Positions 23,022 to 23,452 of a stretch of DNA of 64,000 bases are shown piece by piece. Below the pieces are notes generated by a model. It was not told the origin of the DNA. It made no database searches and was given only the letters and a program-made list of their open reading frames with translations. The translations under genes and the position numbers were made by a program. The stretch is from NCBI GenBank assembly GCA_964016885.1, contig OZ024740.1, positions 113,398,001-113,462,000 of the forward strand, given 5' to 3'. The DNA comes from Eledone cirrhosa (Eukaryota). Positions within the stretch are counted from its first letter, which is position 1, and every line of letters starts with the position of its first letter.

Positions 23022-23452
23022 TAAGAGGAATTCCAACTTTGTCTGATTTACTCGTTTTATTTACAATCCTTTAAAATATATAATGGTATTATAATGAAAT
23101 AGTATGATAGAATATTAAATTCTAAGTGTTAATTGAACATAATGAAATAGTATGATAGAATATTAGATTCTAAGTGTTAATTGAACAAGTACTTTCATGC
23201 TTTCGCAATCTTCAGGTTCATAATATGTGGTGACAGTCGAGTTTGCAATTTTCAACAGTTGAAAATTGCAAACTCGACTGTCACCACATATTATGAACCT
23301 GAAGATTGCGAAAGCATGAAAGTACTTGTTCAATTAACACTTAGAATTTAATATTCTACCATACTATTTCATTATAATACCATTATATATTTTAAAGGAT
23401 TGTAAATAAAACGAGTAAATCAGACAAAGTTGGAATTCCTCTTATTAATATA
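23014..23452. repeat. Near-perfect foldback palindrome (centre 23257) with a 48-bp duplication in the left arm
   Basis: Direct reverse-complement match; 23091-23138 repeats as 23139-23186. Confidence 0.92.
23294..23332 (+). ncRNA. Type I hammerhead ribozyme motif (minus copy at 23182-23220)
   Basis: Stem I tgaac/gttca; CTGAAGA; stem II t-tgc(gaaa)gca-t; GAAA; palindromic stem III agtact; cleavage CUU after 23327. Confidence 0.75.

Follow-up and report, generated by a model that had tools for sequence, protein, structure and literature searches.

The question raised by this locus of Eledone cirrhosa is whether a 48-bp tandem duplication, found in one arm of a head-to-head retroelement insertion, records the cutting of an RNA by a hammerhead ribozyme in vivo. 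According to the original prediction, made for the 64,000-nt stretch of DNA analyzed here (the window), the duplication ends at the ribozyme cleavage site and arose when reverse transcriptase (RT) ran off the 5′ end of a self-cleaved RNA and jumped to an uncleaved copy.

The duplicated arm and its predicted hammerhead

Element positions are numbered from the predicted cut, +1 being the first base 3′ of it (window position 23186 on the minus strand, 23328 on the plus strand) and -1 the preceding base. When the left arm was reverse-complemented and aligned to the right one, the extra 48 nt proved to be confined to the left arm (Table 1), where the two units are identical at 47 of 48 positions (98%); apart from this, only one base (+32) and the length of the tail distinguish the arms. 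The predicted 3′ product begins at 23186, and both units start at this base of the element (+1), so that the proposed coincidence of the duplication boundary with the ribozyme cut also holds, with an ambiguity of 1 nt, the junction being free to slide over a T that precedes each unit. An assembly artefact was ruled out, the same junction being present at seven loci with different flanks and private variants.

Table 1. Features of the head-to-head insertion and its surroundings (window coordinates).
Feature	Position	Strand	Remarks
Left arm of head-to-head Penelope-like element (PLE) insertion	23014–23256	-	Element -70 to ~+125, duplicated, short tail
Right arm	23258–23452	+	Without duplication; C at +32
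Palindrome centre, element -73 to -70	23255–23259		Likely transcription start; tight centre in this zone at 901 loci
Duplication unit 1, +1 to +48	23139–23186	-	Directly 3′ of predicted cut; private C at +21
Duplication unit 2, +1 to +48	23091–23138	-	Runs on into 3′ tail
Duplication junction, +48/+1	23138–23139	-	1 nt homology; identical junction at 7 loci (L091–L099)
Predicted minimal type I hammerhead, U.U at 10.1-11.1, palindromic stem III	23182–23220	-	Predicted cut between 23187 and 23186
Same hammerhead, right arm	23294–23332	+	Predicted cut between 23327 and 23328
PLE 'tail', ~40 nt, right arm only	23453–23492	+	
(TA)n flank, target microsatellite	22956–23018		
(TA)n-rich flank	23493–23592		

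The minus-strand motif reads CUGAAGA, stem II UUGC-GAAA-GCAU, GAAA GUAC UU, the cut and then GUUCAAUU. By pattern matching it contains the CUGANGA, GAAA and UH core elements together with stems I and II, as in minimal type I hammerheads; stem I comprises 5 bp, and a U.U is followed by a stem II of 3 bp. The motif was not detected by an Rfam search at the gathering threshold, and the cut site is therefore a prediction from the consensus. Stem III is palindromic, and the calculated energies (-6.6 kcal/mol for the 8-nt self-duplex vs +0.3 kcal/mol for closure of the monomer) predict that it pairs well only between two molecules. This unfavourable monomer fold counts against cleavage, as does the absence of the G10.1-C11.1 pair, which is replaced by U.U. 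Three other motif types in the window also have U.U, combined with different, covarying 3-bp versions of stem II. The chance of one junction falling on 2 of ∼230 positions is ∼1%, but a pattern scan of the 64-kb window found ∼15 hammerhead-like motifs, so that a single coincidence with +1 is weak evidence and the argument has to be carried by a genome census.

The parent element and its likely transcription start

The 3.0-Gb genome contains 5390 exact matches to a 37-nt core of the element, and copies were collected from it by sequence patterns. One locus (L307, G000:C1:21872000-21880700) is an 8.3-kb palindrome of two full-length 4202-nt units, placed head to head and 99.9% alike, whose centre lies on the cut-site junction. 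Its 775-aa open reading frame (ORF) matches GIY-YIG (E 3e-6, above the cut-off) and RVT_1 (E 3e-6, 27.6 bits, below the cut-off of 29.6), and the parent is accordingly an EN+ PLE, with RT followed by a C-terminal GIY-YIG endonuclease in one ORF. The anatomy is that of EN+ PLEs, with direct repeats of pseudo-LTR (pLTR) type, an inverted 5′-truncated copy and a tail at one end, and the hammerhead motif sits within the pLTR. By eye, the ORF also shows the Neptune/Nematis traits, namely a CX4CXXC linker before the endonuclease (the definition being CX2-5CxxC) and a DKG motif, in place of the DKT motif and CxCX5C linker of the Hydra clade. Each unit of L307 further carries an upstream ORF of ∼450 residues, without Pfam match, that overlaps the 775-residue RT-endonuclease frame. 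A non-LTR retrozyme, with tandem non-coding units that each contain a hammerhead, was rejected, as the 48-nt unit lacks a ribozyme and the parent is autonomous.

In copy L025 (-104 to -70) a TATA box begins at -104, CCAAT boxes lie further upstream and an Inr-like start is found at -73, 31 nt after the TATA box; given these promoter elements, -73 is the likely transcription start. The accumulation of copies beginning there serves as a positive control for the appearance of an RNA 5′ end in the genome. In an unfiltered sample taken from the beginning of contig 1, comprising 66 of the first 100 copies listed (of 5390), 18 start at -73, 32 at -74 to -70 and 13 reach at least -288. About half of the short copies begin at the Inr-like start. 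A G is present at -74 in 18 of 69 arms starting at -73 and is possibly cap-derived, a reading confounded by homology to the partner arm. The window palindrome is one of the 901 centred in the start zone, and the copying of both its arms therefore ran across a ribozyme that was intact.

In about 8 of 23 arm pairs inspected by eye, the two arms of a single insertion differ at sites that are polymorphic in the family, which suggests that a minority of insertions may have been made from two RNA molecules each. At L014, L018, L021, L089, L236 and L265 the arms of one insertion differ at subfamily-diagnostic sites.

Junctions and 5′ ends around the cut

The census of 5′ ends was based on two filtered samples (the first 100 of 549 and the first 100 of 584 matches), in which small deletions and duplications are counted as ends and one-base filters pass recurrent junctions all-or-none. 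The 85 ends mapped between -24 and +21 have densities of 1.09 per nt at -24 to -3, 3.78 at -2 to +7 and 2.08 at +8 to +20, an excess at -2 to +7 with p = 3e-6 relative to the upstream and p = 0.014 relative to the downstream segment. This excess is broad and has its mode at +3. In the first 100 of 584 matches the density at -56 to -34 (1.35 per nt) is near that at -2 to +7 (2.0 per nt), and the low core may therefore partly be a valley. A narrow census inspected by eye (first 100 of 164) found 23 events at -1, of which 16 represent one recurrent fold-back with 4 nt of homology. RAD-seq reads pile up at an AATT site at +5 to +8, which looks like a restriction end and is uninformative on junctions. 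The expectation that 5′ truncations and junctions would concentrate at the cut nucleotide was thus not borne out for 5′ ends as a whole, since 5 of the 85 lie at +1/-1 (p = 0.34) and most short copies start at or next to -73; two classes of junction, the tight head-to-head and the same-strand joins, are more sharply placed. The lack of a sharp +1/-1 spike among all 5′ ends in these samples counts against cleavage.

Tight head-to-head junctions were counted genome-wide in four zones by matching patterns (16+16-nt anchors, gap up to 30). Such junctions occur at 901 loci in the start zone, 8 in the core (-4 to -18), 91 in the cut zone (+12 to -3) and 27 at +30 to +16, a drop of ∼11-fold from the cut zone to the zone just upstream; the zone differences have binomial p values of 6e-19 and 3e-9. 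These counts do not follow the supply of inverted homologies. The perfect 8-bp palindrome that ends at -1 was used only 4 times, compared with 14–21 uses for each of the weaker homologies at +1 to +12 (first 100 of 117 matches, by eye), short inverted homologies are in similar supply in the cut and downstream zones, and the start zone has the fewest homologies yet 901 events. It counts against the cleavage reading that 4-nt homologies are more numerous in the cut zone (5) than in the core (2). In the first 50 of the 91 cut-zone loci, inspected by eye, the end of the longer arm lies at +3 to -2 in 38 and beyond -3 in 4. Inverted homology of 1–8 nt is found at the most frequent cut-zone junctions, so that the true end is blurred over -2 to +5; at one locus (L300), +1 is joined to +1 bluntly, with zero homology. 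At L305 and L306 an unrelated sequence is joined at -2 to +1, an arrangement also present in both arms of a third locus; this is a further inherited junction in the cut zone.

Six distinct donors were found to be joined onto +1 on the same strand (+48, +7, -557, -1036, -1062 and -1901), the +7 donor at L301 having produced a 7-bp duplication of the same form as the 48-bp one. Three of the joins have zero homology, which fixes the site at exactly +1, and a blunt same-strand join onto +1 is supported as a recurrent junction class of the element family. Among 366 arms, 5 have a long-range same-strand join to the element body, the landing sites being +1, +1, +1, -1 and +3 with homologies of 0–1 nt; the proportion at +1/-1 (4 of 5) exceeds that of arms ending there in general (36 of 366; Fisher p = 4e-4). 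None of the 81 arms ending at the start site has a long-range same-strand join, and none of nine long-range inverted joins lands at the cut, counts from which an inherited carrier and a duplicate row were excluded. It counts against this enrichment that L304 and L308 were picked by the authors from a list limited to -7 to +6 and that L088 came from a similarly narrow search; the only long-range joins from wide windows, L206 and L251, both land at +1. Splicing was rejected as an origin of the +1 joins, which have neither an AG ahead of +1 nor a GT behind the donors. For the five long-range joins, a short copy inserted within an older ORF was rejected as well, because the reading frame is not taken up again beyond the tail.

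We consider it likely that a minority of template RNAs was cut in vivo by the U.U hammerhead and that RT, on reaching the cut end, jumped to another template. The main rival to this reading, which we regard as unlikely, dispenses with cleavage and proposes that the folded or protein-bound ribozyme (stem I, +1 to +5) stalls RT and that the stalled cDNAs join or jump, giving the duplication. It fits the end mode at +3 and the broad excess at +2 to +7 in the filtered samples, as well as the presence of 15 junctions of the +3 type among the first 50 tight ones in the cut zone, and a block would likewise account for the upstream drop. The exact joins are accommodated less well, because the three zero-homology joins and the blunt +1/+1 junction end precisely at the last base of stem I to be read rather than at the entry to the stem. 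The +3 and +5 types may instead reflect annealing through an imperfect palindrome at +3 to +10 with short flaps, and a 5-bp stem is only a weak block to RT.

It is improbable, in our estimate, that the family records cleavage while this particular duplication is unrelated to it, having formed at the DNA level in a source copy, by end joining or slippage, and coinciding with +1 only by accident. In favour of this, a single event is involved, other small tandem duplications have ends at -23, -10, -4 and +7, and the abundance of hammerhead-like motifs in the window leaves room for coincidence. The junction has only 1 nt of homology, however, unlike slippage, its form matches the five other blunt joins onto +1, and in L093 it constitutes the 5′ boundary of a long element body (at least 1528 nt).

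Probable inheritance of the junction and relation to known systems

The +48/+1 junction has nine matches in the genome, at seven loci. It is present in both arms at two loci and in one arm at the window locus and at L099; at L094 and L095 it forms the end of a long fragment of the ORF. Three carriers have long upstream sequence, and all three belong to a haplotype that is present in 4 of 24 long arms, the fourth member (L018) lacking the duplication and having C at +32 as does the right arm in the window; a tree of the 24 long arms, with near-zero branches, gives no resolution as to monophyly. No piece spanning the duplication junction was found in the Logan contigs of runs X1–X4, and such a gap proves nothing. 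Separate jumps at the window locus and at the six other loci would fit the single-arm duplications of the window locus and L099, but are very improbable given that the donor +48 is identical at all seven loci whereas the other five donors all differ, that two loci carry the duplication in both arms and that the long carriers share one haplotype. The junction was therefore counted once; it was probably inherited from one source, and the duplication probably did not happen at the window locus. The proposed run-off from a cleaved RNA and subsequent jump is thus likely for an ancestor of this copy, as judged from the family census, and probably does not apply to the locus itself. Against the cleavage reading it must be noted that the donor position +48 has no special feature and that the duplication is a single event.

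Under the favoured sequence of cleavage and jump, most RNAs would be copied uncut to the start site, giving the palindromes centred at -73. Cut RNAs, with cDNAs ending at about +1, would account for fewer than one in ten of the short two-armed insertions (91 vs 901 tight palindromes), and cleavage of this minority would probably take place in dimers or with the help of protein. The cDNAs of cut RNAs would be joined head-to-head via short end homologies or would jump bluntly to another template, which we infer to have been uncleaved; a jump landing at -1 would be traceless, while one that mis-landed would leave a scar such as +48/+1. The likely source of the present junction would be a partial tandem, in which copy 1 extends to +48 and is followed by a full-length copy from +1, and which was copied later; such a tandem could explain all the carrier forms. 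The window locus would then represent a two-primed insertion, its left arm made from an RNA with the duplication and its right arm from an RNA without it, and the right arm can be attributed to a second RNA because the arms of other insertions differ at polymorphic sites. By extension, the partial tandems of Penelope pLTRs may be built by template jumping from hammerhead-cut ends, the cut removing promoter and ribozyme, the jump to a second RNA restoring them, and +48/+1-type scars representing mis-landed jumps. We put this forward tentatively, as an idea somewhat more doubtful than not; if it is true, the same data would imply germ-line cutting by a non-canonical U.U hammerhead whose stem II has 3 bp. 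PLEs depend on partial tandems for their expression, and a way in which these may arise would thereby be open to testing. From the junction counts the position of the cut is predicted to the base; the single duplication is only one inherited example.

Neptune/Nematis-type EN+ PLEs resemble the element in having RT with C-terminal GIY-YIG and a CX4CXXC linker, partial-tandem pLTRs, an inverted 5′-truncated copy, a 30–40-bp tail at one end, (TA)n targets and a TATA box with an Inr-like motif in the pLTR (PMC8557442; PMC3846280). The clade match of the present element is drawn from motifs, and in the passages of these papers considered here the junctions are not tied to the ribozyme cut. Metazoan PLEs are described as carrying minimal type I hammerheads which, as here, have the core boxes, a short stem I and a palindromic stem III and loop suited to dimers, and are located in the pLTR; they keep the G10.1-C11.1 pair and a long helix II, in contrast to the U.U and 3-bp helix II found here (PMC4209133). 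Dimer or protein-assisted cleavage has been reported for other PLE ribozymes (PMC11167929; PMC4209133). PMC8557442 calls the function of the hammerhead in EN+ PLEs unclear, and PMC4209133 states that in vivo evidence is absent; together with PMC11167929, these sources present the role of PLE hammerheads and their cutting in cells as open. Within the passages and listings covered by a literature search (Lunse et al., RNA Biol 14:1499, lies outside it), neither PLE junctions at the cut nor the U.U 10.1-11.1 variant were found to have been described.

The Poseidon PLE of the anole has been studied in vitro and is similar in that nicking and extension take place on both target strands, the tail matches two internal start sites of RT and cleavage is protein-assisted (PMC11167929). 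According to the same account none of the RNA-seq reads had its start or end at the cut, and in vitro the main substrate was RNA that had not been cut and cleavage was dispensable, whereas in the present family a minority of insertions have genomic junctions that mark the predicted cut. A precedent for the junctions is R2, in which an HDV-like ribozyme sets the 5′ junction and template jumps occur from the RNA 5′ end, one of them inherited as a subfamily (PMC3774820; PMC3414825). Shared features are a ribozyme-made 5′ end in genomic junctions, joining by microhomology and the passing of a single jump to several copies; R2 differs in ribozyme and element class, and its cut is the usual 5′ end, while here it is used in a minority beside a dominant promoter start (PMC3774820; PMC3414825).

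Several other repeats were observed in the window. Further hammerhead-like motifs, of several families, lie at 22855-22912, 5953, 10642, 25513, 57158 and 63360, those at 5953 and 25513 likewise having U.U and a covarying 3-bp stem II. A head-to-head array at 18592-19998 consists of 310-bp units that each contain a U.U-type hammerhead motif and is retrozyme-like; its centre (19316) lies ∼200 nt upstream of the plus-strand cut and not at the cut. Within (TA)n at 54560-54830 is a head-to-head pair of hammerheads with long stem II, belonging to another family, whose centre (54703) is 83 nt upstream of both cuts. An A/C-rich tandem array of 19 kb (28568-48038; 63-bp unit, 267 copies, 93% alike) is either a satellite or a threonine-rich coding repeat. 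Finally, two similar tRNA-like sequences at 27463-27533 (minus strand) and 27814-27884 (plus strand) face apart and are possibly the heads of a short interspersed element.
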